DNA of 14,720 nt from a virus (Duplodnaviria; Heunggongvirae; Uroviricota; Caudoviricetes): the IMG/VR virus record IMGVR_UViG_2711768072_000014, one strand, 5' to 3'. How positions within the stretch are numbered: position 1 is the stretch's first letter; the number at the start of each line of letters is the position of its first letter. Shown here in pieces: positions 1 through 14,720 of this stretch. Position numbers and translations under genes: made by a program. The notes under the pieces were generated by a model that saw only the letters and a program-made list of their open reading frames with translations, did no database searches and was not told the origin of the DNA.

Positions 1-1218
1 ATGAACAAACTGAGCGACACATTGCTAAGGAAACTTCATGGTAAGCCAGCGGAGAAAAACACGTTTTATAGTGATGGCGGAAACCTGAGCGTGAAATATT
101 TAACATCAGGGAAATTGACCTGGTATTTCACATACAGGGCCGGAACGGGAAGGGAGACACGACCCGAACGCATTAAGCTGGGAAGTTATCCTGATCTGAG
201 CCTGAAAGCAGCCAGGGAAAAAGCCGCACAGTGTCGCACATGGCTGGCTGAGGGGAAAAATCCACGTCATGAGATGAATTACACCGTACAGGAAGCGTTA
301 AAGCCCGTAACGGTTGGCGATGCGCTCACCTACTGGCTTGAGTATTACGTAAAGGAAAACCGCGTGGATTATATCGCCCTGAAAAGGCGACTTAATAATC
401 ACGTAATACAGCAGATTGGTGCTATGCCGCTGGATAAATGCGAGCTACGGCACTGGCTGGCCTGTTTTGACCAGGTGGCAAAGCGAACGCCTGTTACTGC
501 CGGATTCGTGCTACAGGCGTGCAAACAGGCGCTTAAGTTCTGCCGTAGGCGGCGCTATGCAATCAGCAACGTTCTGGACGATCTGAACGTGGCGGACGTT
601 GGGAAAAAACCGGATATAAGCGAACGTGTCTTAAGTAACAAAGAACTTGGCGAATTATTGCAGGCACTGGACAAAAAAATATTTTCCCCTTACTACGTCG
701 CGTTAATCCGCCTCCTGATTGTCTTCGGAGCCAGGACGGTAGAACTGAGGCTATCGGAGATCGGGGAGTGGGATTTTACGGAAATGCTATGGACCGTTCC
801 GAAGGAGCACAGCAAAACGAAGGTCGCAATATTCCGGCCCATACCGGAAGCGATCCTGCCGTTCGTCACGCAGCTGGTGGAGCAGAACAGGCACACGGGC
901 TTATTGCTGGGGGAAGCGAAACAGGAGGCCAGCGTATCGCAGTATGGAAGATTAGCGCACAGGAGGCTTAATCATCCTCACTGGTCACTGCATGACATCC
1001 GGCGCACCTTTACAACCATGCTGAACGATTTAGGCGTTGATCCGCATGTCGTGGAGCAGCTTACAGGTCATCAGATGCCAGGAATGCAGCGAGTTTATAA
1101 TCATTCCCGTTATCTGGATGCTAAACGCAATGCGCTGGATATGTGGACGGAGCGGTTAGGGATACTGGCGGGAACACATGAAAACGTAACCACGCTACCA
1201 GTAGCCAGAAGAAAATAA
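1..1218 (+). CDS. int: Tyrosine site-specific integrase, P4-like (N-terminal arm-binding domain plus C-terminal catalytic domain)
   Basis: 405-aa ORF. N-terminus FYSDGGNLSVKY...WYFTYR resembles the arm-type DNA-binding domain of P4-family integrases. C-terminus HDIRRTF...LTGHQ...RVYNHSRY carries the R/H/R/Y catalytic signature of tyrosine recombinases. Confidence 0.9.
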   Translation: MNKLSDTLLRKLHGKPAEKNTFYSDGGNLSVKYLTSGKLTWYFTYRAGTGRETRPERIKLGSYPDLSLKAAREKAAQCRTWLAEGKNPRHEMNYTVQEALKPVTVGDALTYWLEYYVKENRVDYIALKRRLNNHVIQQIGAMPLDKCELRHWLACFDQVAKRTPVTAGFVLQACKQALKFCRRRRYAISNVLDDLNVADVGKKPDISERVLSNKELGELLQALDKKIFSPYYVALIRLLIVFGARTVELRLSEIGEWDFTEMLWTVPKEHSKTKVAIFRPIPEAILPFVTQLVEQNRHTGLLLGEAKQEASVSQYGRLAHRRLNHPHWSLHDIRRTFTTMLNDLGVDPHVVEQLTGHQMPGMQRVYNHSRYLDAKRNALDMWTERLGILAGTHENVTTLPVARRK

Positions 1219-3755: not shown

Positions 3756-4055
3756 ATGAAACTTAAATATTCTGGCTTAACTGCCAGTGGCAACACTCAC
3801 CCTAAATTTACGCGCGGTGATATTTACCGCGACCAGTACGGCGGCACGGTAATGATTAAGGGCGTGGCGGGACGGTGCGTAACTTACCGCCGTGAAGGTT
3901 ACGAATATGATTGCGTGATGCCTGTTTATCAGTTCCGGCGTGATTTTTCTCTGGTACAGACCGCGCCGCATAACGTGCCCACCAGCAACGCCAGGGCACG
4001 GGCAAACATCCAGAAGCTGAAAACCATGATTAACGGATTCAGGGGCAAGAAATGA
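3756..4055 (+). CDS. Hypothetical protein (99 aa)
   Basis: ATG at 3756 with GGAGA upstream. Stop overlaps the start of the replication gene (ATGA). Confidence 0.6.
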   Translation: MKLKYSGLTASGNTHPKFTRGDIYRDQYGGTVMIKGVAGRCVTYRREGYEYDCVMPVYQFRRDFSLVQTAPHNVPTSNARARANIQKLKTMINGFRGKK

Positions 4056-5449
4056 AAAGCGCACCGAACTTAAAAAAACAGCCTTACGACAAGATGACCG
4101 AAGTCATCATTTTTGCGGGTAGTGATGCGTGGGCACATGCGAAACAGTGGCAGGAACAGGACGGGCGACTGGCTGGCGATAATGTGCCTCCCATTGTGCT
4201 GGCTGATGATCAACTGGATGAACTGGCAGACCTGAGAATCATCGACGAGGGGCGCTATTGTGTCCGGCTGTACAAGGCAGGCCACATCAGGCCATCAAAT
4301 ATTAATGCCATTGCGCACAAGCTGGCGGCGGCGGGCGTAACTGATGCGAATTATTACCCCGAAGGGATACACAGCCAGAAGCGGGAGAACTGGCGCGAAT
4401 ATCTGGAACGGGAGCGGGGGAAAAAGCCAGGGGAAGAACACCACCAGCGAAAAACCACGCTACCGATGAGCGTTGGATCTGCCGGATACGACACGCAATT
4501 AGATTACGTGGTAAAGGGGATTATTCCGGCATCGTCGCTATGCAGCATATACGGGGCAAGCGGTTCCTATAAATCATTCCTTGCGGGTTCGTGGGCGTGT
4601 CACGTTTCCACGGGCCGCCAGTGGGGAGGCCGCAGGGTGGCGCATGGCGCTGTTCTCTATGTGGTTGGTGAAGGCGGTATCGGCGTTCCGCGTCGTGTAA
4701 AAGCCTGGGAGGTTGTGCACGGTGAGCAGGTGAAAAATCTGTATCTGGTAAACCGTCCAGTTTTTCCGGCTGTCCCGCTTGATGTTGATGAACTGGTTAT
4801 CGCTGCCCGTCAGGTGGAGCGGGAAACGGGTAAACCTGTACGCATGATTATTCTTGATACTCTGGCGCGTTGCTTTGGTGGCAATGATGAAAATGATTCC
4901 CGTGATATGGGGGCGTTTATCCGTGGGTGTGACGAGCTTAAACGGCGCACAGGGGCCACGGTGCTGGTGGTTCACCATTCCGGCAAGGATGAGACGAAAG
5001 GCGCGCGCGGTTCCAGTGCATTTCGTGCTTCGCTGGATGCTGAATACCGGATACGCAGGGAGGACGCAGGAAGCGAAGCGCTGGTTATCTCATGCACCAA
5101 AATGAAGGACGCGGAGGAACTCAAAGAGGCTGCCTATGATTTGCGGGTGGTGGAGCTTTTTACCGACGCTGACGGGGAGTTAATCACGTCGCTGGTGGTG
5201 GTGGATAAGCCGCGCCCTCCCGTTGAACTGGAGCGCATCGAGGAGGCAGGCAACAAGACGGAAAACCATACCGCACTATGGGGGTGCATCCGTTCACGCA
5301 CACAGAACGGCGACAAGTGCACGATCCCGCTGTTACGTGATGACATGAAACGGCTTGGGTATGACGTGAAAAATATGCGGCGATGGTTAGCCAAACTGGA
5401 AAAAGACGCCGTGATTTACATTGATGGTGATGATGTAGGACCACTGTAA
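4052..5449 (+). CDS. Replication protein with RecA-fold ATPase domain (AAA_25 / RepA-DnaB-like helicase type; PICI Pri-Rep-like)
   Basis: 465-aa ORF. Walker A-like YGASGSYKSF, Walker B-like MIILDTL and LVVHHSGKDETKG are arranged as in RecA-fold replicative ATPases of plasmids and satellites. Immediately followed by an iteron cluster. Confidence 0.8.
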   Translation: MKSAPNLKKQPYDKMTEVIIFAGSDAWAHAKQWQEQDGRLAGDNVPPIVLADDQLDELADLRIIDEGRYCVRLYKAGHIRPSNINAIAHKLAAAGVTDANYYPEGIHSQKRENWREYLERERGKKPGEEHHQRKTTLPMSVGSAGYDTQLDYVVKGIIPASSLCSIYGASGSYKSFLAGSWACHVSTGRQWGGRRVAHGAVLYVVGEGGIGVPRRVKAWEVVHGEQVKNLYLVNRPVFPAVPLDVDELVIAARQVERETGKPVRMIILDTLARCFGGNDENDSRDMGAFIRGCDELKRRTGATVLVVHHSGKDETKGARGSSAFRASLDAEYRIRREDAGSEALVISCTKMKDAEELKEAAYDLRVVELFTDADGELITSLVVVDKPRPPVELERIEEAGNKTENHTALWGCIRSRTQNGDKCTIPLLRDDMKRLGYDVKNMRRWLAKLEKDAVIYIDGDDVGPL

Positions 5450-6214: not shown

Positions 6215-6625
6215 ATGACAGCACAAATTGCAGCTTACGGGCGGCTGGTGGACGACCCGCTGGTAAAACAGAGCAGCAAGGGCACACCGATGACTCTGGC
6301 GCGTATGGCGGTATCGTTGCCATGCAGCCAGGCACATGACGGACAGGCGACGTTATGGTTATCGGTTATCGCATTTGGCAAACAGGCCGATTTCCTGGCT
6401 AAACATCAAAAAGGCGATGTTGCCAGCGTATCCGGCACGATGCAGGTAAGCCAGTGGACCGGACAGAACGGGGAAACGCGGCGGGGGTATCAGGTTATTG
6501 CAGACAGCGTAATCAGTGCCCGCGCGGCACGTCCAGGCGGGAACAGACGCAAAACCACAGGCACACAGGGTAATCAGCCACCAGCGGGAGGCGATGACCC
6601 TTACGGTGACGGTATTCCGTTCTGA
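6215..6625 (+). CDS. ssb: Single-stranded DNA-binding protein (short SSB with acidic C-terminal tail)
   Basis: 136 aa. Core WLSVIAFGKQADFLAKHQKGD...QWTGQNGETRRGYQV parallels the E. coli SSB OB-fold (WHRVVLFGKLAE...KWTDQSGQDRY). The C-terminus DDPYGDGIPF matches the SSB protein-interaction tail (DDDIPF). GAGGTGG Shine-Dalgarno. Confidence 0.8.
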   Translation: MTAQIAAYGRLVDDPLVKQSSKGTPMTLARMAVSLPCSQAHDGQATLWLSVIAFGKQADFLAKHQKGDVASVSGTMQVSQWTGQNGETRRGYQVIADSVISARAARPGGNRRKTTGTQGNQPPAGGDDPYGDGIPF

Positions 6626-6635
6626 GGGGGTGACG

Positions 6636-6884
6636 ATGGTACATGACCGCACAGCGGAGGAACTCGAGGCAAAAGGCTTTTACCGGAGGGCGTCGGCGCG
6701 ATGGGGTGAAGTCATGCAACTGGTGGAGACAGACAAGGAACGGCATCAGGTTACGATGCGACGGCTGGAATGTTCCAGGAAGGCACAGAGGCCACCGGAG
6801 CCGCCAACGGAGAACTACGCAGACCTGAGAAATGCAGTAAATCGCACTTACGCAGACATGGGGCTGAGCAAATTAGCAGAGTAG
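6636..6884 (+). CDS. Small putative transcriptional regulator, PerC-like (tentative family assignment)
   Basis: 82 aa from ATG 6636, with GGGGG upstream just after the SSB stop. Motif AEELEAKGFYRRASARWGEVM resembles the LEAKG-x-RRAA-x-RW motif I recall for PerC/Pch-family activators; this is a recollection, not a search. The track ORF starting at 6516 overlaps ssb and is taken as an unlikely extension. Confidence 0.5.
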   Translation: MVHDRTAEELEAKGFYRRASARWGEVMQLVETDKERHQVTMRRLECSRKAQRPPEPPTENYADLRNAVNRTYADMGLSKLAE

Positions 6885-7189: not shown

Positions 7190-8347
7190 ATGCAGAGAAT
7201 AATCGAATTACGCCAGCAGAAAACCGCCATTAAAAATCAGATGCGCGACATGCTGGAGAACGCTGAAAAAGAAAACCGCAGTCTTAACGATGCTGAGGGC
7301 GCAAAATTTGACGAATTACGCGCTAAAGCTGAATCCCTCGATAAAGACATTTCCCGCCTTGAAGCCATTGCAGACGAAGAGCGCAGCAAGCCAGGTAAAA
7401 GCAGCCAGACCACTGACCCCGCAGAACTACGCAGCTACATTCTGACAGGTGAAACCCGCGCATTAAGTACAGGCGTTCCCGCTGATGGTGGTTATACCGT
7501 TATCCCCGAACTGAACACCGAAATCATGCGAATGCTGGCGGATGAATCCACCATGCGCCGCATCTGTACCGTGAAGAAAATCAGCAGCAACGAGTTTAAG
7601 CAGCTTGTTTCCGCTGGCGGTGCGACCGTTAACCACGGTGAAGAGGGTAAGGCACGCGAACAGACCAGCACCCCGCAGATTAACGAGGTGAGCATTAAGC
7701 TGTATCCGGTCTATGCGTACCCGCGCACCACGCAGGAAATCGTGGATTTTTCCGATGTGGACATCCTTTCATGGCTGACGGGCGAGATTGGCGACACCTT
7801 CACGGAAACCGAAGAAAGCGATCTGGTTGTGGGCGACGGTGACAAAAAAGCAAAAGGTTTTTTATCCGTACCCCGTGCAGAGAAGAACGACAAAGAGCGT
7901 GATTTTGGTACGTTGCAGGTAATTAAACCTTCCGAATCTCTGGCGTGGACATCTGCGGACCCGCTGATCGACCTGAAATTTGCATTACGTAAAAAATACC
8001 GCAAAAACGCGGTCTGGGTGGTTAACTCCACGACGGCCGCAAAACTTCAGAAGGTGAAGAACGCGAACGGTGATTACATCTGGCGCGACCGTTTACAGGC
8101 GGGTGATCCTGATACGTTGCTGGGCCTTCCGGTCGAATATCTGGAGTTTATGCCTGATAACGTTATTGCCCTGGGTGACTTCAAACGCGGTTACTACATT
8201 GTTGATCACGAAACAGGTGTTCGCACCAGACCGGACAACCTCACAGAGCCGGGCTTCATCAAAATTTTCACGCAGAAATATTTAGGCGGTGGCGTGGTGG
8301 ATTCGAACGCGATCAAGATTCTGGAACTGCCACAGGACGACGATTAA
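7190..8347 (+). CDS. Major capsid protein, HK97 fold, with N-terminal coiled-coil scaffolding (delta-like) domain
   Basis: 385 aa. The first ~100 residues are charged and helical (ELRQQKTAIKNQMRDMLENAEKE...DKDISRLEAIADEE), as in HK97-type delta domains. The remainder has a typical HK97-family capsid composition. No separate scaffold gene is present. Followed by protease and portal. Confidence 0.88.
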   Translation: MQRIIELRQQKTAIKNQMRDMLENAEKENRSLNDAEGAKFDELRAKAESLDKDISRLEAIADEERSKPGKSSQTTDPAELRSYILTGETRALSTGVPADGGYTVIPELNTEIMRMLADESTMRRICTVKKISSNEFKQLVSAGGATVNHGEEGKAREQTSTPQINEVSIKLYPVYAYPRTTQEIVDFSDVDILSWLTGEIGDTFTETEESDLVVGDGDKKAKGFLSVPRAEKNDKERDFGTLQVIKPSESLAWTSADPLIDLKFALRKKYRKNAVWVVNSTTAAKLQKVKNANGDYIWRDRLQAGDPDTLLGLPVEYLEFMPDNVIALGDFKRGYYIVDHETGVRTRPDNLTEPGFIKIFTQKYLGGGVVDSNAIKILELPQDDD

Positions 8348-8357
8348 CAGCATACAG

Positions 8358-8386
8358 AAGGGGCTTAAAAGCCCCTTTAGTGTTTT
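8358..8386 (+). terminator. Terminator-like hairpin between capsid and protease genes (possible partial terminator setting capsid:protease stoichiometry)
   Basis: AAGGGGC (8358-8364) pairs with GCCCCTT (8371-8377) around a TTAAAA loop, followed by a T-rich tail TAGTGTTTT directly before ATG 8387. Confidence 0.4.
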
Positions 8387-8959
8387 ATGGGTGAAAAAAT
8401 TATGAAGAGTATGGAAATCCGGTCATCGGAAATCACTACCAGCGGAGCCGGTACGCTGACGGGCTACGTTGTTCGCTGGGATAAGCTTTCAGAACTGCTA
8501 TGGGGGGAGTTTTACGAAAAATTCCAGCGGGGGGCGTTTACTGAGTGGCTTGCGGCGGATAATGACGTTCGCGGCCTGTATGAGCATGACCACAGCATGT
8601 TACTGGGGCGCACCCGTTCCGGCACGCTGAAACTGGAAGAGGACGAAACAGGGTTACGCTTTGAACTGACCCCACCGGATACCAGTACAGGGCGCGACGT
8701 TATCGAACTGGTTAAACGAGGTGATATATCCGGCATGAGCTTTGGCTTTCGTTCCCGTAAGGATGTATGGGATACCACAACAGATCCATGCGTGCGCACC
8801 GTGCTGGTGGCGGAACTGTACGAAATTACCGTTACATCCGTACCGGCTTACCCTGATTCCGGCGTGGAGCTGGCCCGCCGCTCCCTGTACGAGCAGCACC
8901 CCGAAAAAATGCCGCGTGCGGATAATCGCCGCTGGTGGGCGGATTTAGCGGGGGTGTGA
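8387..8959 (+). CDS. Prohead maturation protease, HK97 family (S78-type)
   Basis: 190 aa. Motifs GYVVRWD, YEHDHS, GMSFGF and VPAYPDS parallel HK97 gp4-type prohead proteases (GYAAVFD, WAHD, GLSIGF, FPAN). Start may instead be ATG 8402 or 8411. Confidence 0.85.
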   Translation: MGEKIMKSMEIRSSEITTSGAGTLTGYVVRWDKLSELLWGEFYEKFQRGAFTEWLAADNDVRGLYEHDHSMLLGRTRSGTLKLEEDETGLRFELTPPDTSTGRDVIELVKRGDISGMSFGFRSRKDVWDTTTDPCVRTVLVAELYEITVTSVPAYPDSGVELARRSLYEQHPEKMPRADNRRWWADLAGV

Positions 8960-8960
8960 T

Positions 8961-10172
8961 ATGTGGCCTTTCAGAAGAAAAAAAGAGCAGCGCAGCATGA
9001 CGCTTGATGAGTTTATGGCGCTGGCCGGCACATCGAACACGGGGGCTGGTGAGTACGTATCATCGGGGACAGCGGAATCACTGCCCGCCGTCATGAACGC
9101 CGTCACGGTCATCTCTGAGGCGGTGGCTACCATGCCGTGTTACCTGTACCTGGTACGCAATGAGAAGGGGAAGGAGGCCCGAGAGTGGCTTGATTCTCAT
9201 CCGGTCGATCACATCCTCAACGAGCGCCCGAACGCATGGCAAACCCCCTACCAGTTTAAGCGAATGATGATCCGCCACTGCCTGTTAAACGGTAATGCTT
9301 ACGCGGTGATTCAGTGGGGGCGTGATGGTTTTCCGGCGGCTTTACATCCTTACCCGCCGCAGTCGGTGAACGTGGAGCAGACAGGTGAGCATAACTGGCG
9401 CTATTGCATCACTGACGCCTACACCGGAAACACCCGCAACTATTTACCGTGGGAGGTTCTCCACCTTCGTTACTCCACGGATGACGGTTTTATGGGGCGC
9501 TCACCTGTAACCATCTGCCGCGAATCGCTGGGGCTTGGGCTGGCCCAACAACGCCACGGCGCGAGCGTGATGCGTGATGGCATGATGGCGGCAGGGGTTA
9601 TCACGTCAGGCGAATGGCTGGACGGCGTGAAGGGCAAACAGGCATTAGCCGCACTGGAACGCTACAAAGGGGCCAGAAACGCCGGAAAAACGCCCATCCT
9701 TGAAGGGGGTATGAGCTATCAGCAGCTGGGCATGAGTAATCAGGATGCTGAATGGCTGGCCTCCCGTCGCTTCACCATTGAAGACATCGCCCGAATGTTC
9801 AACGTCTCGCCGATTTTTTTGCAGGAATACAGCAACAGCACCTACAGCAATTTCAGCGAGGCAAGCCGCGCATTTCTCACCATGACGATGCGCCCGTGGC
9901 TGGCGAACTTTGAGCAGCAGATAAAAAACGCCCTGCTGGTGGCCTCACCTGTACCTGGTATCCGGTATCAGGTGGAGTTTGACAGCGCGGACCTGTTACG
10001 GGCCACTCCTGGCGAACGCTTTGCCACCTATGAACGCGGCATCAAATCCGGCGTTATGTGCCCGAACGAAGCCCGCGAACGTGAAGGGCTGTCCCCGCGT
10101 GATGGTGGTGATGAGTTCAGCCAGGCATGGAAACAGGAAGTAAAAATCAGCGAGGGAGAAAAACCGGAATGA
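8961..10172 (+). CDS. Portal protein, HK97 family
   Basis: 403-aa ORF. ATG overlaps the protease stop; GGGGGT Shine-Dalgarno. Size, position between protease and adaptor, and composition fit HK97-type portals. Confidence 0.85.
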   Translation: MWPFRRKKEQRSMTLDEFMALAGTSNTGAGEYVSSGTAESLPAVMNAVTVISEAVATMPCYLYLVRNEKGKEAREWLDSHPVDHILNERPNAWQTPYQFKRMMIRHCLLNGNAYAVIQWGRDGFPAALHPYPPQSVNVEQTGEHNWRYCITDAYTGNTRNYLPWEVLHLRYSTDDGFMGRSPVTICRESLGLGLAQQRHGASVMRDGMMAAGVITSGEWLDGVKGKQALAALERYKGARNAGKTPILEGGMSYQQLGMSNQDAEWLASRRFTIEDIARMFNVSPIFLQEYSNSTYSNFSEASRAFLTMTMRPWLANFEQQIKNALLVASPVPGIRYQVEFDSADLLRATPGERFATYERGIKSGVMCPNEAREREGLSPRDGGDEFSQAWKQEVKISEGEKPE

Positions 10173-10507
10173 ACATAGGGCGACTGCGTGACAGGGTAAC
10201 GATTCAGACCCTGAAACAGACCAGGGATATAACCGGCGAAATACTCGAAACGTGGGTGGACGGTCACACACTCTGGGCAAGCGTGAACATGATCAGCAGC
10301 AAGGAGGCCATTTCATCGGGTGCAGAACTGGCGACTGGAACGGTAAGGATATGGATACGCTACAGGAAGGACATCAACGCCACCAGCCGGATAAAGGTCA
10401 ATACGGGGCCGCTGGCGGGGCGTGTACTGAATATCATCGGGCAGCCGCTGCCGGATGCCGCCAGGACACGCCTTGAAATTCTTTGTCGTGAGGGCGCGGA
10501 AAAATGA
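10169..10507 (+). CDS. Head closure / head-tail joining protein
   Basis: 112 aa from ATG 10169, which overlaps the portal stop (ATGA). N-terminal RLRDRVTIQ...W..VWASV pattern is typical of phage head-tail joining proteins. The track ORF starts at 10127 inside the portal gene. Confidence 0.7.
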   Translation: MNIGRLRDRVTIQTLKQTRDITGEILETWVDGHTLWASVNMISSKEAISSGAELATGTVRIWIRYRKDINATSRIKVNTGPLAGRVLNIIGQPLPDAARTRLEILCREGAEK

Positions 10508-10800
10508 CAGAAGAACTTATCACCCTGGAAGAAGTGAAACTCCATTGCCGCATCGATGGCGACGAGGAAGACCAGTTAATCAGCGGATACATCGCCGCAT
10601 CGCTTGAGGCGTGCCAGATACACATAGGCAGGCGCTTTGATGACGGGCTGGAGTTCACGCCAGCCATAAAGATTGGCTGCATGATGTTTATCGCTCACCT
10701 GTATGAAAATCGCCAGATTGTCGCGGATAACGCAAAAACACGCGTACCCATGACGATTGGTGCACTCTGGACGGCTTACCGTGATGTGGGGGTGTACTGA
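10504..10800 (+). CDS. Head-tail connector protein, gp6-like
   Basis: 98 aa. N-terminal LITLEEVKLHCRIDGDEEDQLISGYIAAS resembles gp6-like connector proteins (L.LEE.K.HLRID...D.LI). ATG overlaps the upstream stop. Confidence 0.7.
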   Translation: MTEELITLEEVKLHCRIDGDEEDQLISGYIAASLEACQIHIGRRFDDGLEFTPAIKIGCMMFIAHLYENRQIVADNAKTRVPMTIGALWTAYRDVGVY

Positions 10801-11240
10801 TGCCGTGGCAACCATTAAGACGATGCACAGAACCAGGCTGTAACAGGCGCGTGAAGTCCGGCAAGTGTGAGGAGCACAGGCGGGCGGCATGGCGTGCAGA
10901 GGATGCCAGACGAGGACACCGCCGCGCGCGTGGGTACTCCAGACAGTGGGACAAATACCGCGCCATGTATCTGAGTAAAAACCCGTTATGCGTGCGATGC
11001 CTTGAGAAGGGGATATATACGCCCGCCGTGGTGGTGGATCACATTATCCCGATTAATGGCGGTGATGATGTTCTCTTCTGGCCCGAATGGAACCATCAGC
11101 CATTGTGCCAGGCGTGCCATAACCAGAAAACGAAATGGCTTGATCCGGCAACAAAAAGCAAGCGTGCCGCAGGTGGATTTCGTGAAGAGGAAGAACGGGC
11201 CGCTAACCGCAATAACTGGATGTATGACGCTGATGAATGA
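10800..11240 (+). CDS. HNH endonuclease (packaging-associated)
   Basis: 146 aa. CxxC...CxxC zinc-binding cysteines and VDHIIPINGG...NHQPLCQACHNQKT match the HNH motif (DH..P....N.Q.LC..CH..K). Located immediately upstream of terS as in HK97-like cos phages. Confidence 0.9.
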   Translation: MPWQPLRRCTEPGCNRRVKSGKCEEHRRAAWRAEDARRGHRRARGYSRQWDKYRAMYLSKNPLCVRCLEKGIYTPAVVVDHIIPINGGDDVLFWPEWNHQPLCQACHNQKTKWLDPATKSKRAAGGFREEEERAANRNNWMYDADE

Positions 11241-11406
11241 GCGGGAACAAAACCGCCTTATCCGTGGACTTATAAGGCAGCGTGACGCATGGAAGACACA
11301 GGAAACAGGGCATAAAGATAAAGCGTCAGGACGCGCAGAACGCATCACAGCGAAGCGATTAACCGACCGTGACTGCGAGGTTATGGAATGTTTCCGCAAT
11401 CGCTGA

Positions 11407-11529
11407 TGAGGCTGTATGACGGGGTGGGGGGCGTTTTCAGGACAAACCCGACCCCGCCGGGCACCGACCGCCTCCTCAAATTTTTATGCACGGGAATTTT
11501 TTGAAAAATAATCTGGCGAAAAAATAAGC
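11407..11529. other. Candidate cos / packaging-recognition region between HNH and terS
   Basis: 123-bp intergenic region with G/C-rich runs (GGGGTGGGGGGCG at 11421-11433; CCCGACCCCGCCGGGCACCGACCGCC at 11447-11472) followed by an AT-rich stretch. This is the position where HK97-like cos phages carry cos. Confidence 0.35.
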
Positions 11530-11886
11530 ATGGCAAGACCACCGAAAGCCCCCGCCTACCTGGATGATATCGCCGTGAAGCAGTGGCGGGAAAAATCGCG
11601 GCAGCTTGCGGAACGGGGAGACCTTACCCCCGCCGACTGGAGTAATCTGGAACTGTATTGTGTCAACTACTCCATTTACCGGAAAGCCGTTGCAGACCTT
11701 GCGGCGCGCGGGTTCAGCATTGTTAACAGTCAGGGCGGCGAGAGCAGAAACCCCGCATTAAGCGCAAAATCCGACGCTGAAAGAGTGATGATAAAAATGG
11801 CCTCTTTGCTCGGTTTTGACCCGATAAGCCGCCGTAAAAATCCACCGGAAACAGAAGAAGAGGACGAGCTTGACCGCCTGGAATAA
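11530..11886 (+). CDS. terS: Terminase small subunit, P27 family
   Basis: 118 aa. Pattern W...LAERGDLTPADWSNLELYCVNYSIYRKA...LGFDPISRRK is typical of P27-family small terminases. Directly precedes and overlaps the large terminase. Confidence 0.85.
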   Translation: MARPPKAPAYLDDIAVKQWREKSRQLAERGDLTPADWSNLELYCVNYSIYRKAVADLAARGFSIVNSQGGESRNPALSAKSDAERVMIKMASLLGFDPISRRKNPPETEEEDELDRLE

Positions 11887-13531
11887 GTACGCAGAAGACG
11901 TAAAAACGGGCAAAATTCCGGCCTGTAAACGGCTGAAACAGGCCGTTAAACGGTACTTTTCGGACCTTGAAAGCCCCCTTTACACGTTCGATCGTGAGGT
12001 TGTGGAGCGGTTTATTGCCTTTTCCAGGGTGTGCCCGCACGTAAAAGGCGCAATGCGCGGTAGCCCCATTGAGCTGGAGCCGTGGCAGCAGTTCGCCTTT
12101 GCGTGCATCCTCGGCTTTAAGGTTAAGGCCACCGGACGGCGCAAATACACGAGCGCCTTTATCGAAGTGCCGCGCAAAAATGCGAAATCCACGACCGCCG
12201 CGATTCTGGCTAACTGGTTTTTGATTATGGAGAACGGTCAGCAGGATATCTACACCGCAGCGGTGAGCCGTGACCAGGCGCGGATCGTCTTTGATGATGC
12301 GCGTCAGATGTGCCTTTTATCCCGACCGTTACGCAGGCGGGTGAATATTCAGGCGCATAAGGTGATACACCCGAAAAGCAACAGCCTGTTAAAGCCGCTG
12401 GCAGCAAAAGCGGCAACCATTGAAGGTACAAACCCGAGTCTTGCCATTGTGGATGAATATCACCTGCACCCTGACAACGGGGTTTATTCCGCGCTTGAAC
12501 TGGGAATGGGGGCGCGTCCGGAGGGGCTGTTATTTGCCATCACCACATCGGGGAGCAACGTTGTTTCAGCCTGTAAACAACACTACGACTATTGCTGCCA
12601 GATACTGGATGGTGAAGAGGTGAACGAATCCATGTTCGTGCTGATTTACGAGCTGGATGATGAAAGCGAGGTTGACGATCCGGCGATGTGGATAAAGGCG
12701 AATCCCAATATCGATGTTTCCGTCGATCGTGAAAAACTGGCCTCAACCATCCAGAAAGCGCGGGGAATACCGTCGCAGTGGGTGGAGATGATGACAAAGC
12801 GATTTAATATCTGGTGCCAGGGGGCTACCCCGTGGATGGGTAACGGCGCATGGGCTGAGTGTGCCGGAACGTTCACGGAGGAAGATTTACACGGCCAGGA
12901 GTGTTACGCGGGGCTGGATTTATCATCAACCAGCGATATTTCCAGCGTATGCTATGCCTTTCCGGTCGGTAAAACCATTATGCTGATTTCCCGTCATTAT
13001 CTGCCGGAGTTCCAGCTACAGAACCCCGCCAATAAAAACCGCGCTGTCTATCGTCAGTGGGCTAAAGCGGGCTGGATACGCACAACGCCTGGCGACTGCA
13101 TTGATTACGACCGGATCAGAGATGACATCATGCAGGACGCGGAGAAATTTCATATCAGGCTGGTGGGCTTTGATACGTGGAACGCCACGCATCTCAGAAC
13201 GCAATTACAGGGGGCAGGTTTTGAGGTGGAGCCGTTCCCGCAAACCTACCTCAGATTCAGTCCGGCGGCGAAATCGTTCGAAGTTTTTGTTAACCGCAGG
13301 GTGATTGTGCATCGTGGCGATCCGGTGTTGTCCTGGTCGATGAGTAACGTCGTGATGCAGAGTGACGCGAACGCCAATATCAAGCCGAACAAGAAAAAAT
13401 CACCGAACAAGATAGACCCGAGCGTAGCGGCGCTGATGGCGTTTGGTACATTCCAGGCAGAGCATGAGGATTTTGCTTTTGATATAAGCGACAGCCACCG
13501 CCAGAAACTGGAAGAATTTAGCGGGGTGTAA
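11870..13531 (+). CDS. terL: Terminase large subunit (ATPase plus nuclease domains)
   Basis: 553 aa. Walker A-like VPRKNAKSTTAA in the N-terminal ATPase region, acidic motifs (IVDEYH) and a C-terminal nuclease-like region. TTG start at 11870 preceded by GAGGA, overlapping terS. Confidence 0.9.
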   Translation: MTAWNKYAEDVKTGKIPACKRLKQAVKRYFSDLESPLYTFDREVVERFIAFSRVCPHVKGAMRGSPIELEPWQQFAFACILGFKVKATGRRKYTSAFIEVPRKNAKSTTAAILANWFLIMENGQQDIYTAAVSRDQARIVFDDARQMCLLSRPLRRRVNIQAHKVIHPKSNSLLKPLAAKAATIEGTNPSLAIVDEYHLHPDNGVYSALELGMGARPEGLLFAITTSGSNVVSACKQHYDYCCQILDGEEVNESMFVLIYELDDESEVDDPAMWIKANPNIDVSVDREKLASTIQKARGIPSQWVEMMTKRFNIWCQGATPWMGNGAWAECAGTFTEEDLHGQECYAGLDLSSTSDISSVCYAFPVGKTIMLISRHYLPEFQLQNPANKNRAVYRQWAKAGWIRTTPGDCIDYDRIRDDIMQDAEKFHIRLVGFDTWNATHLRTQLQGAGFEVEPFPQTYLRFSPAAKSFEVFVNRRVIVHRGDPVLSWSMSNVVMQSDANANIKPNKKKSPNKIDPSVAALMAFGTFQAEHEDFAFDISDSHRQKLEEFSGV

Positions 13532-13544
13532 TGAGGTCAGCAGC

Positions 13545-13826
13545 ATGACAGAAGCCGAAATACTGCGATTAATCCGCCGCGTCTCTGGAATCAGCCAGCA
13601 GCATGACGAACAGGCCACGCAGCCGGACAGCGTGACCGCCGAAAATTATGCGCGTGTTGTTGCTGAGGTGATGCGCCGTGATGGTATCCAGCTTAATGAT
13701 GTGGATATGCGCAACATACGGATCCGCGTTCTTGAAATGCTGGCCTACCGTCGCCGCGTGCAGACGTACAGGGAAAAAGCAAAAATTACGTACCACTGGA
13801 AGAAGCCGGAGCGGTTACGGCGGTAA
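13545..13826 (+). CDS. Hypothetical protein (93 aa), last gene before the noncoding right end
   Basis: ORF in the track. GAGG 9 nt upstream of ATG. No recognisable motif. Confidence 0.5.
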   Translation: MTEAEILRLIRRVSGISQQHDEQATQPDSVTAENYARVVAEVMRRDGIQLNDVDMRNIRIRVLEMLAYRRRVQTYREKAKITYHWKKPERLRR

Positions 13827-13831
13827 CTGGT

Positions 13832-13859
13832 TGAACTTAAAGCAAAGCGCAAAATTGCG
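13832..13859. repeat. 28-bp perfect direct repeat, copy 1 (TGAACTTAAAGCAAAGCGCAAAATTGCG)
   Basis: Identical to 14051-14078; start-to-start distance 219 bp. Contains the internal inverted repeat GCGCAA..TTGCG. Confidence 0.9.
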
Positions 13860-13872
13860 TTGGCTGGTGGGT

Positions 13873-13892
13873 GAGTTGCAGATCTGCAACTC
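13873..13892. repeat. 20-bp perfect palindrome GAGTTGCAGATCTGCAACTC
   Basis: Sequence is its own reverse complement. Shares the TGCA-N4-TGCA core with the palindrome at 14101-14124. Confidence 0.9.
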
Positions 13893-14050
13893 GACCATGA
13901 AATTACGGAAAATACCCGTAGTTTGGGTAGTAAGAGTAACACCCAGATTTTGGGGCTTACTCGCGATACCCAAATAAAGGGTATCGGTGGAAGAAATATC
14001 GTTTCTCATATGTGAGTACCGAGGGCGGAATTCCGCCTTCGGTTACTCGC

Positions 14051-14078
14051 TGAACTTAAAGCAAAGCGCAAAATTGCG
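14051..14078. repeat. 28-bp perfect direct repeat, copy 2
   Basis: Identical to 13832-13859. Confidence 0.9.
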
Positions 14079-14100
14079 CTGATTACTGGTTGGAATTGTT

Positions 14101-14124
14101 CCAGAGTGCAAATTTGCACTCTGG
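14101..14124. repeat. 24-bp perfect palindrome CCAGAGTGCAAATTTGCACTCTGG
   Basis: Sequence is its own reverse complement. TGCA-N4-TGCA core as in 13873-13892. Confidence 0.9.
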
Positions 14125-14555
14125 CCTAACCCGTTGATATTTCCGGCAACCTCAATTTGAGGAGATCGGAAACATCACCCTTCAAATTCTGAATGGTCAT
14201 AATGACCACGCAGACCATCAAGGCAACCACAACGAACATCGTTACGGTTGGAGCTTTTACCCCACTGGGGAAAAGGTACGCACCTGAATCATCATTACCG
14301 TGATCAAGGGTATGTAAAGCCCACCAGCCTGATTAACGTTTAACCGGAAAAAAATTCCGGTAGGTGGGGATCCCCATATCGACATTAACGCCCCTCATGA
14401 ATTGGTGCGCTTCCCCCTGGAAAGATGACCCGCCTTTATATTTCTTGTGTCTATTTGTTCCACGTTGTTTCATACAGTGCACCGAACGGTGTAGTCACTG
14501 GTGTAGTCATTTTGCGATTTTTGGCACTTTTTGTGGTGCAAATTATTTAATTAAA

Positions 14556-14720
14556 TCAATTAGTTAAGTTAAATAAGTTATATATAACAGCAATAAATAA
14601 TGCGAGAATAAACGGCACGATGATCTCGGCGGCAAAACGGATACCGCAGAGAATAATGACCAGCATTCCCAACATAATGACGATTTTTAGGCCATTGAGC
14701 GTGATGATCGGCTTTGCCAT
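14556..14720 (-). pseudogene. tqsA: 5' fragment of a membrane transporter gene (TqsA/YdgG-like N-terminus) ending in a stop after 54 codons; not in the ORF track
   Basis: Hand translation of the reverse complement from ATG 14720-14718: [54 protein letters not shown]. The first ~46 residues match my recollection of the E. coli TqsA N-terminus; the last 8 codons run into AT-rich DNA. Confidence 0.4.

Follow-up and report, generated by a model that had tools for sequence, protein, structure and literature searches.

The window, i.e., the whole stretch of 14,720 nt that was analysed, starts at the ATG of an integrase gene and ends exactly at the start codon of tqsA (ydgG). Its right edge carries a chimeric stub ORF of 54 aa (14556-14720, minus strand), whose ATG lies at the last base of the window and whose N-terminus had been assigned in an earlier note to the TqsA/YdgG AI-2 exporter. 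This attribution is borne out by BLASTP against the intact TqsA of E. coli (344 aa, from the empty site L002): residues 1-48 of TqsA are matched with 47/48 identities (E=1e-27), and residues 1-46 of the stub are identical to TqsA. The NCBIfam profile NF008930 (AI-2E family transporter) covers the stub at profile positions 1-48 of 344 only (E=6.5e-21), with a score of 75.3 bits that is below the curated cutoff of 318. To judge from these matches, the stub is a gene fragment and not a member protein of the TqsA/AI-2E family.

The host supplies tqsA codons 1-45 and the first two bases of codon 46, down to 14584. Codon 46 is completed by the element at 14583, Ile being kept, and codons 47-54 with the stop (14556-14582) are AT-rich element DNA. 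The GC content is 0.18-0.22 over 14520-14609, where the stub ends; the ORF does stop after 54 codons in AT-rich DNA, as had been noted. The N-terminal hydrophobic region of TqsA corresponds to residues 3-56, and the break falls inside it. The last residues of the stub differ among islands (NLFNLTN, NLFHITR, NLFRITH, NLFHTTR, NLSRIVH, or a stop directly after NLF) and the stub is shortened to 50 aa in one island. In view of this variation the element-coded tail is not conserved as a protein.

Positions 14300-14720 were compared by megablast with 5,426 complete E. coli genomes, of which 5,423 matched. More than 5,000 complete genomes match only 14584-14720 (query 285-421), inside an annotated full-length tqsA, and the sequence left of 14584 has no similarity to tqsA. 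Since most genomes match the query from 14584 on only, the breakpoint is placed at 14584-14592; an integration junction had been expected near 14560-14590. The right-hand 137 nt (14584-14720, minus strand) are host chromosomal DNA, i.e., tqsA nt 1-137, within which lies the attR copy of a 9-bp core, ATAACAGCA (14584-14592, tqsA nt 129-137). In codon terms, this core begins with base 3 of tqsA codon 43 and finishes with base 2 of codon 46. Alignment to an intact tqsA locus without the element (empty site L002), which had been proposed as a check, also puts the break at the core.

The same 9-bp block is common to the three attachment sites: attB (...GGGTTAAGA-ATAACAGCA-ATAAATAATGCG..., empty site L002), attL (...GGGTTAAGA-ATAACAGCA-TTTTATCATTTA..., occupied site L001) and attR (...AAGTTATAT-ATAACAGCA-ATAAATAATGCG..., occupied site L001). 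Strand exchange must take place inside ATAACAGCA; the 9-bp identity bounds the crossover and leaves its exact point within the block unfixed. The right boundary of the island in the window is in this way fixed to 14584-14592.

Of the 5,426 complete E. coli genomes, 231 contain the attR junction (match to at least 80% of the query 14300-14720, junction included) and 247 the attL junction; from these two counts, about 4-5% of complete E. coli genomes carry a split tqsA. A few genomes gave partial tqsA matches: H30 (NZ_CP073976.1) is among those that match the tqsA 5' end only from window position 14638 onward, and H85 gave a partial match on the tqsA 3' side in the attL-junction search. These partial matches suggest other independent disruptions or rearrangements.

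As the window starts at the integrase ATG, attL and the tqsA 3' fragment were read in related islands, which are 94-96% identical to the window; in the same manner, the tqsA promoter and ydgV-mdtJI are visible in related genomes only. Eight island-bearing E. coli genomes were used (L001, L003, i.e., strain H19, L006 and L012-L016). The complete E. coli genome closest to the window has 96% identity over 96% of the window length. In all eight the order is pntB, tqsA 3' fragment, a left arm of about 190 bp, int to TerL, a 93-aa ORF, about 750 bp of non-coding DNA, the tqsA stub and ydgV-mdtJ-mdtI; the pntB-tqsA-ydgV-mdtJI context is found in these relatives and at the empty site. The tqsA 3' fragment is 906 nt long and is marked "missing N-terminus" in 8/8 genomes. 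The core ATAACAGCA is present at both island ends in each of the eight, with a core-to-core length of 15,055-15,601 bp. In-silico joining of the flanks at the core gives, in 8/8 genomes, an ORF of 344 aa that is free of stops and frameshifts.

These observations settle in favour of an insertion the main alternative of the earlier note, namely that the element has inserted into the gene and split it: the core is shared, the remainder of the gene, which was to be looked for upstream of int, lies there (906 nt, about 190 bp upstream in the eight related genomes), and in-silico excision yields the 344-aa ORF.

At attL, two consecutive stop codons in the tqsA frame are located just inside the element, before the junction, and the left arm showed no promoter-like site directed outward. 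A 60-aa "hypothetical protein" annotated by PGAP between attL and int was considered as a replacement N-terminus and rejected: although in the tqsA frame, it is cut off from the tqsA 3' fragment by the two stop codons. Decay is seen in some of the islands in tqsA: L012 has a frameshift in TerL (13524-15184), and in L013 an IS1 lies between the portal gene and the head-closure gene (11571-12268). In both of these genomes the two tqsA halves are undamaged.

The remaining part of the window is occupied by the island. A tyrosine integrase with an arm-binding domain is encoded at 1-1218 (plus strand; the start chosen by PGAP is 12 nt upstream, outside the window). It matches PF13356 (Arm-DNA-bind_3) and PF00589 above their cutoffs, and its putative catalytic residues (R245, H331-x-x-R334, H357 and Y366) were assigned by motif from the translation. 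There follow an AlpA-family regulator/excisionase-like protein (1593-1781, plus), a DUF4222 protein (3756-4055), a RepA-type replicative helicase (AAA_25; 4052-5449, plus), an SSB (6215-6625, plus) and a PerC-family regulator (within 6516-6884, plus). The capsid and packaging module (7190-13531, plus; Pfam matches above cutoff) is made of an HK97-type major capsid protein (7190-8347), a prohead protease (8387-8959), a portal (8961-10172), a head closure protein (10127-10507), a head-tail connector (10504-10800), an HNH protein (10800-11240), TerS (11530-11886) and TerL (11870-13531), all on the plus strand. A conserved 93-aa protein (phrog_1561, function unassigned; 13545-13826, plus) is encoded by the final gene ahead of attR, as in all related islands.

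No tail or lysis gene was found among the window ORFs or in the PGAP annotation of related islands. The size of the island is about 14.8 kb for the window, by extrapolation, and 15.06-15.60 kb in the related islands. Judged by its gene content and size, the element is a capsid-forming PICI-type phage satellite of about 15 kb.

The plus-strand frame 1839-2864 is stop-free over 341 aa, has an odd composition and is overlapped by the minus-strand ORFs 2051-2239 and 2282-2461. One of these two minus-strand ORFs matches, in position and length, the "YlcI/YnfO family" ORFs annotated by PGAP in related islands, which contain one to three copies of such small-ORF pairs. A plus-strand frame like 1839-2864 is called there alternately "hypothetical protein" or Icd-like pseudogene.

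The right (P) arm of the attachment site extends over 14314-14583 (plus strand). Its larger part (14314-14560) has about 90% identity with sister elements integrated elsewhere, and 14561-14583 occurs only in elements that target tqsA. At 14488-14509 (plus) GGTGTAGTCA is present twice in tandem, with starts 12 bp apart, and the same pair adjoins int in the left arm of the related islands. Since the repeats are found on both arms and Int has an Arm-DNA-bind_3 domain, the GGTGTAGTCA repeats are plausible candidates for arm-type integrase binding sites. A match to the IHF consensus WATCAANNNNTTR at 14554-14566 (plus) is 18 bp from the core and is kept in the sister attP type; it is a consensus match only and is statistically weak, the window containing 2 matches and 24/200 shuffles reaching 2. 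Core-type Int sites could not be assigned from the inverted repeats around the core (GTTATATATAAC in attR, GTTAAGAATAAC in attB), because the DNA around the core is too AT-rich.

Between the last ORF and attR, about 750 bp (13827-14583) contain no convincing gene. Three closely spaced palindromes precede attR, at 14018-14043 (ACCGAGGGCGGAA/TTCCGCCTTCGGT), 14065-14080 (AGCGCAAAATTGCGCT) and 14101-14124 (a perfect 24-bp palindrome, CCAGAGTGCAAATTTGCACTCTGG); they may be bidirectional terminators or protein-binding sites. Rfam at gathering thresholds gave nothing in the whole window, and a permissive Rfam search of 13800-14720 gave only tfoR at chance level (E=0.35); this non-coding stretch is not explained by an RNA known to Rfam. 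A search of 50,697 phage records with the region 13540-14592, which includes the right arm, gave no match, a result that bears on the arm sequence and not on the use of the tqsA attB by prophages.

Sister islands (L004 and L007) are integrated between roxA and phoQ; they share the gene order of the window's island, and their attP arms are nearly identical to its own. Because this target is intergenic, no gene is split by them. Their integrase is 90% identical to that of the window, 17/40 substitutions being in the N-terminal 60 residues. Comparison of the core region (window 14561-14592 vs. L004 16680-16714 and L007) reveals that about 35 bp around the core are replaced: the core is GGACATATTT where the tqsA type has ATAACAGCA. 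Three of the four arm-repeat positions have GGTGTAGTTA. On the basis of these alignments, the tqsA-type and roxA-phoQ-type islands form a compact natural target-switch pair. That a neighbouring remnant, and not the element itself, had split tqsA was another suggestion of the earlier note; it is excluded, the DNA up to the core being the element's own right arm, since the same arm adjoins the same packaging module at another chromosomal site.

Both target types can be found in one genome: CP146507.1 carries two cf-PICI-type islands, L006 in tqsA and L007 at roxA-phoQ, with an identical 465-aa RepA helicase. Two other islands at the roxA-phoQ site have a different late module, i.e., L005 (CP027452.1), whose 465-aa RepA is identical to that of the window, and L011 (O157:H7 strain 2-6-2), whose int-alpA-rep layout is like that of the window. 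The late module of both comprises a lambda-E-type capsid and a head decoration protein, with in addition a small terminase in L011. From these late-module swaps it follows that classical and capsid-forming PICIs share backbones and att sites. The O157:H7 locus L011 was considered as the cf-PICI prototype reference and rejected: it holds a classical PICI at roxA-phoQ whose int region contains an IS.

Taken together, the interruption of tqsA at a 9-bp core, the copy of this core at either end of a 15-kb island with a tyrosine integrase, and undamaged gene halves that can be rejoined in silico lead to the conclusion that 14584-14592 is almost certainly the attR of a capsid-forming PICI-type satellite of about 15 kb, integrated inside the tqsA (ydgG) coding sequence of E. 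coli, probably by its own Int. As deduced from this anatomy, the island integrase would recombine attP, i.e., an AT-rich core region with two GGTGTAGTCA repeats on each arm, with attB at ATAACAGCA (tqsA nt 129-137). The promoter-proximal 137 nt of tqsA would then stay at the right end, where translation would enter element DNA, read 8 foreign codons and stop, giving the 54-aa ORF; the promoterless remainder of 906 nt would lie beyond the window edge, about 190 bp ahead of int. The AI-2 exporter is expected to be inactive while the island is resident, since the element carries no tqsA substitute, and TqsA to be non-functional, since the break is inside the N-terminal hydrophobic region and 298 residues are cut off from the promoter. 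If a helper phage induced the island, excision dependent on AlpA would restore the gene, precise excision rebuilding in silico the intact 344-aa tqsA. About 4-5% of complete E. coli genomes would in that case be devoid of a functional AI-2 exporter gene and have a phage satellite inside it, which is useful for annotation and for studies of AI-2 phenotypes.

Other explanations of the truncated ORF have to be weighed against this integration. The AT-rich context is the one point that speaks for a sequencing or assembly artefact, or for a point mutation in a continuous tqsA. However, the DNA left of 14584 is unlike tqsA and is identical or nearly identical to the island right arm in many independent complete genomes; divergence is complete at 14583, with no frameshift, and no intact gene continues beyond a sequencing error, a possibility that the earlier note had kept in mind. 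The probability of an artefact is negligible. Duplication of the end of the target gene is a common strategy of integrative elements, discussed in PMC7192596, and the island could supply a functional replacement end for tqsA, as with tRNA genes or icd, the gene staying active. Yet only 8 codons follow the junction vs. 298 missing, a full TqsA query recovers by tblastn residues 1-48 only and no other TqsA-like sequence in the window, and on the other side the two stops close the tqsA frame at attL in a left arm with no promoter-like site; a functional end of this kind is extremely improbable. It is true in a trivial sense that the element supplies an altered gene end, as had been proposed, i.e., 8 codons and a stop, but nothing beyond that, the tail not being conserved. 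It is also very unlikely that the 54-aa ORF codes for a real small membrane protein, whether an independent family or a stub with a gained function, even though it keeps the native promoter side and start codon, is hydrophobic, and has database protein entries of exactly this sequence on 330 contigs, the cluster to which they belong having 227 members of 39-57 aa. The named members of this cluster are all from E. coli/Shigella and are named after TqsA/YdgG or "partial"; residues 1-46 are simply TqsA; the equivalent ORF in related genomes is a PGAP pseudogene, "missing C-terminus"; the element-coded tail is variable, down to a total of 50 aa in one island; and the ORF is absent wherever the island is absent. 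By these names and this distribution the cluster is one stub annotated repeatedly rather than a separate family of small proteins: database entries of 54 aa correspond to this E. coli stub, and not to a full-length small protein that would have contradicted the truncation. The ORF should be annotated as a tqsA pseudogene fragment and not as a small membrane protein.

A further explanation concerns the significance of the split. Under "regulated gene integrity", for which tqsA is named as a candidate in PMC7192596, the split would be a reversible switch: a helper phage would induce AlpA and Int, the island would excise and tqsA would be rebuilt, the site being selected and not incidental. If this were true, the resident satellite would block AI-2 export, and quorum-signal export and biofilm behaviour would be coupled to the state of the satellite and of the helper phage. 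Integration does inactivate tqsA without a restoring copy, the same site is used in 231-247 genomes, and the two tqsA halves are undamaged and restorable in 8/8 genomes, including the two with a decayed island, which is compatible with a reversible switch. On the other hand, a recent insertion would also leave undamaged halves, the gene being no longer than about 1 kb, and about 95% of genomes keep tqsA intact. PICI excision occurs in a cell infected by a helper phage, and such a cell usually lyses; a restored gene would for this reason rarely be of benefit. A selected switch is accordingly regarded as rather unlikely, and the integration of the satellite into tqsA is retained as such.

Some known systems are comparable. 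As with three gene-splitting residents that serve as switches, namely the Listeria comK phage, the Stx prophage in mlrA of E. coli and skin in sigK of B. subtilis, the insertion is inside a coding sequence and there is no restored copy. Precise excision rebuilds the gene in these three systems, and in silico only in the case of tqsA; moreover, the resident of tqsA is a phage satellite and not a phage, and a role as a switch is here hypothetical.

With regard to the element itself, the cf-PICI prototype is EcCIEDL933, according to bioRxiv 10.1101/2022.09.08.507074, where six attB sites are given for E. coli cf-PICIs, some of them shared with classical PICIs. The island of the window resembles EcCIEDL933 in its size of about 15 kb, in int, alpA and rep, in its HK97-type capsid, protease, portal, head-tail connectors, HNH, TerS and TerL, and in having no tail genes. 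EcCIEDL933 was mobilised by the helper phages HK106 and HK446; for the window element, induction by a helper phage and production of tail-less capsids are predictions.

With regard to the site, tqsA is listed among the core genes of E. coli that prophages disrupt by integrating (Bobay et al. 2013, PMC3603311), and the prophages concerned may be these same islands. Islands of 16, 11 and 15 kb, respectively, are reported as Eco282.16.tqsA, Eco33.11.tqsA and Eco557.15.tqsA (Mageeney et al. 2020, PMC7192596), and tqsA islands are scored there as disrupting the UPF0118 domain. In neither PMC7192596 nor PMC3603311 are the tqsA islands described as cf-PICIs, and the identity of the exact site with these entries is deduced from gene, size and species, not from sequence comparison. 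The junction is an ordinary insertion at an already catalogued site, which involves no new kind of biology: like the TIGER tqsA islands of PMC7192596, the island occupies the same host gene, falls in the same size class (11-16 kb) and disrupts the UPF0118/AI-2E domain without restoration.
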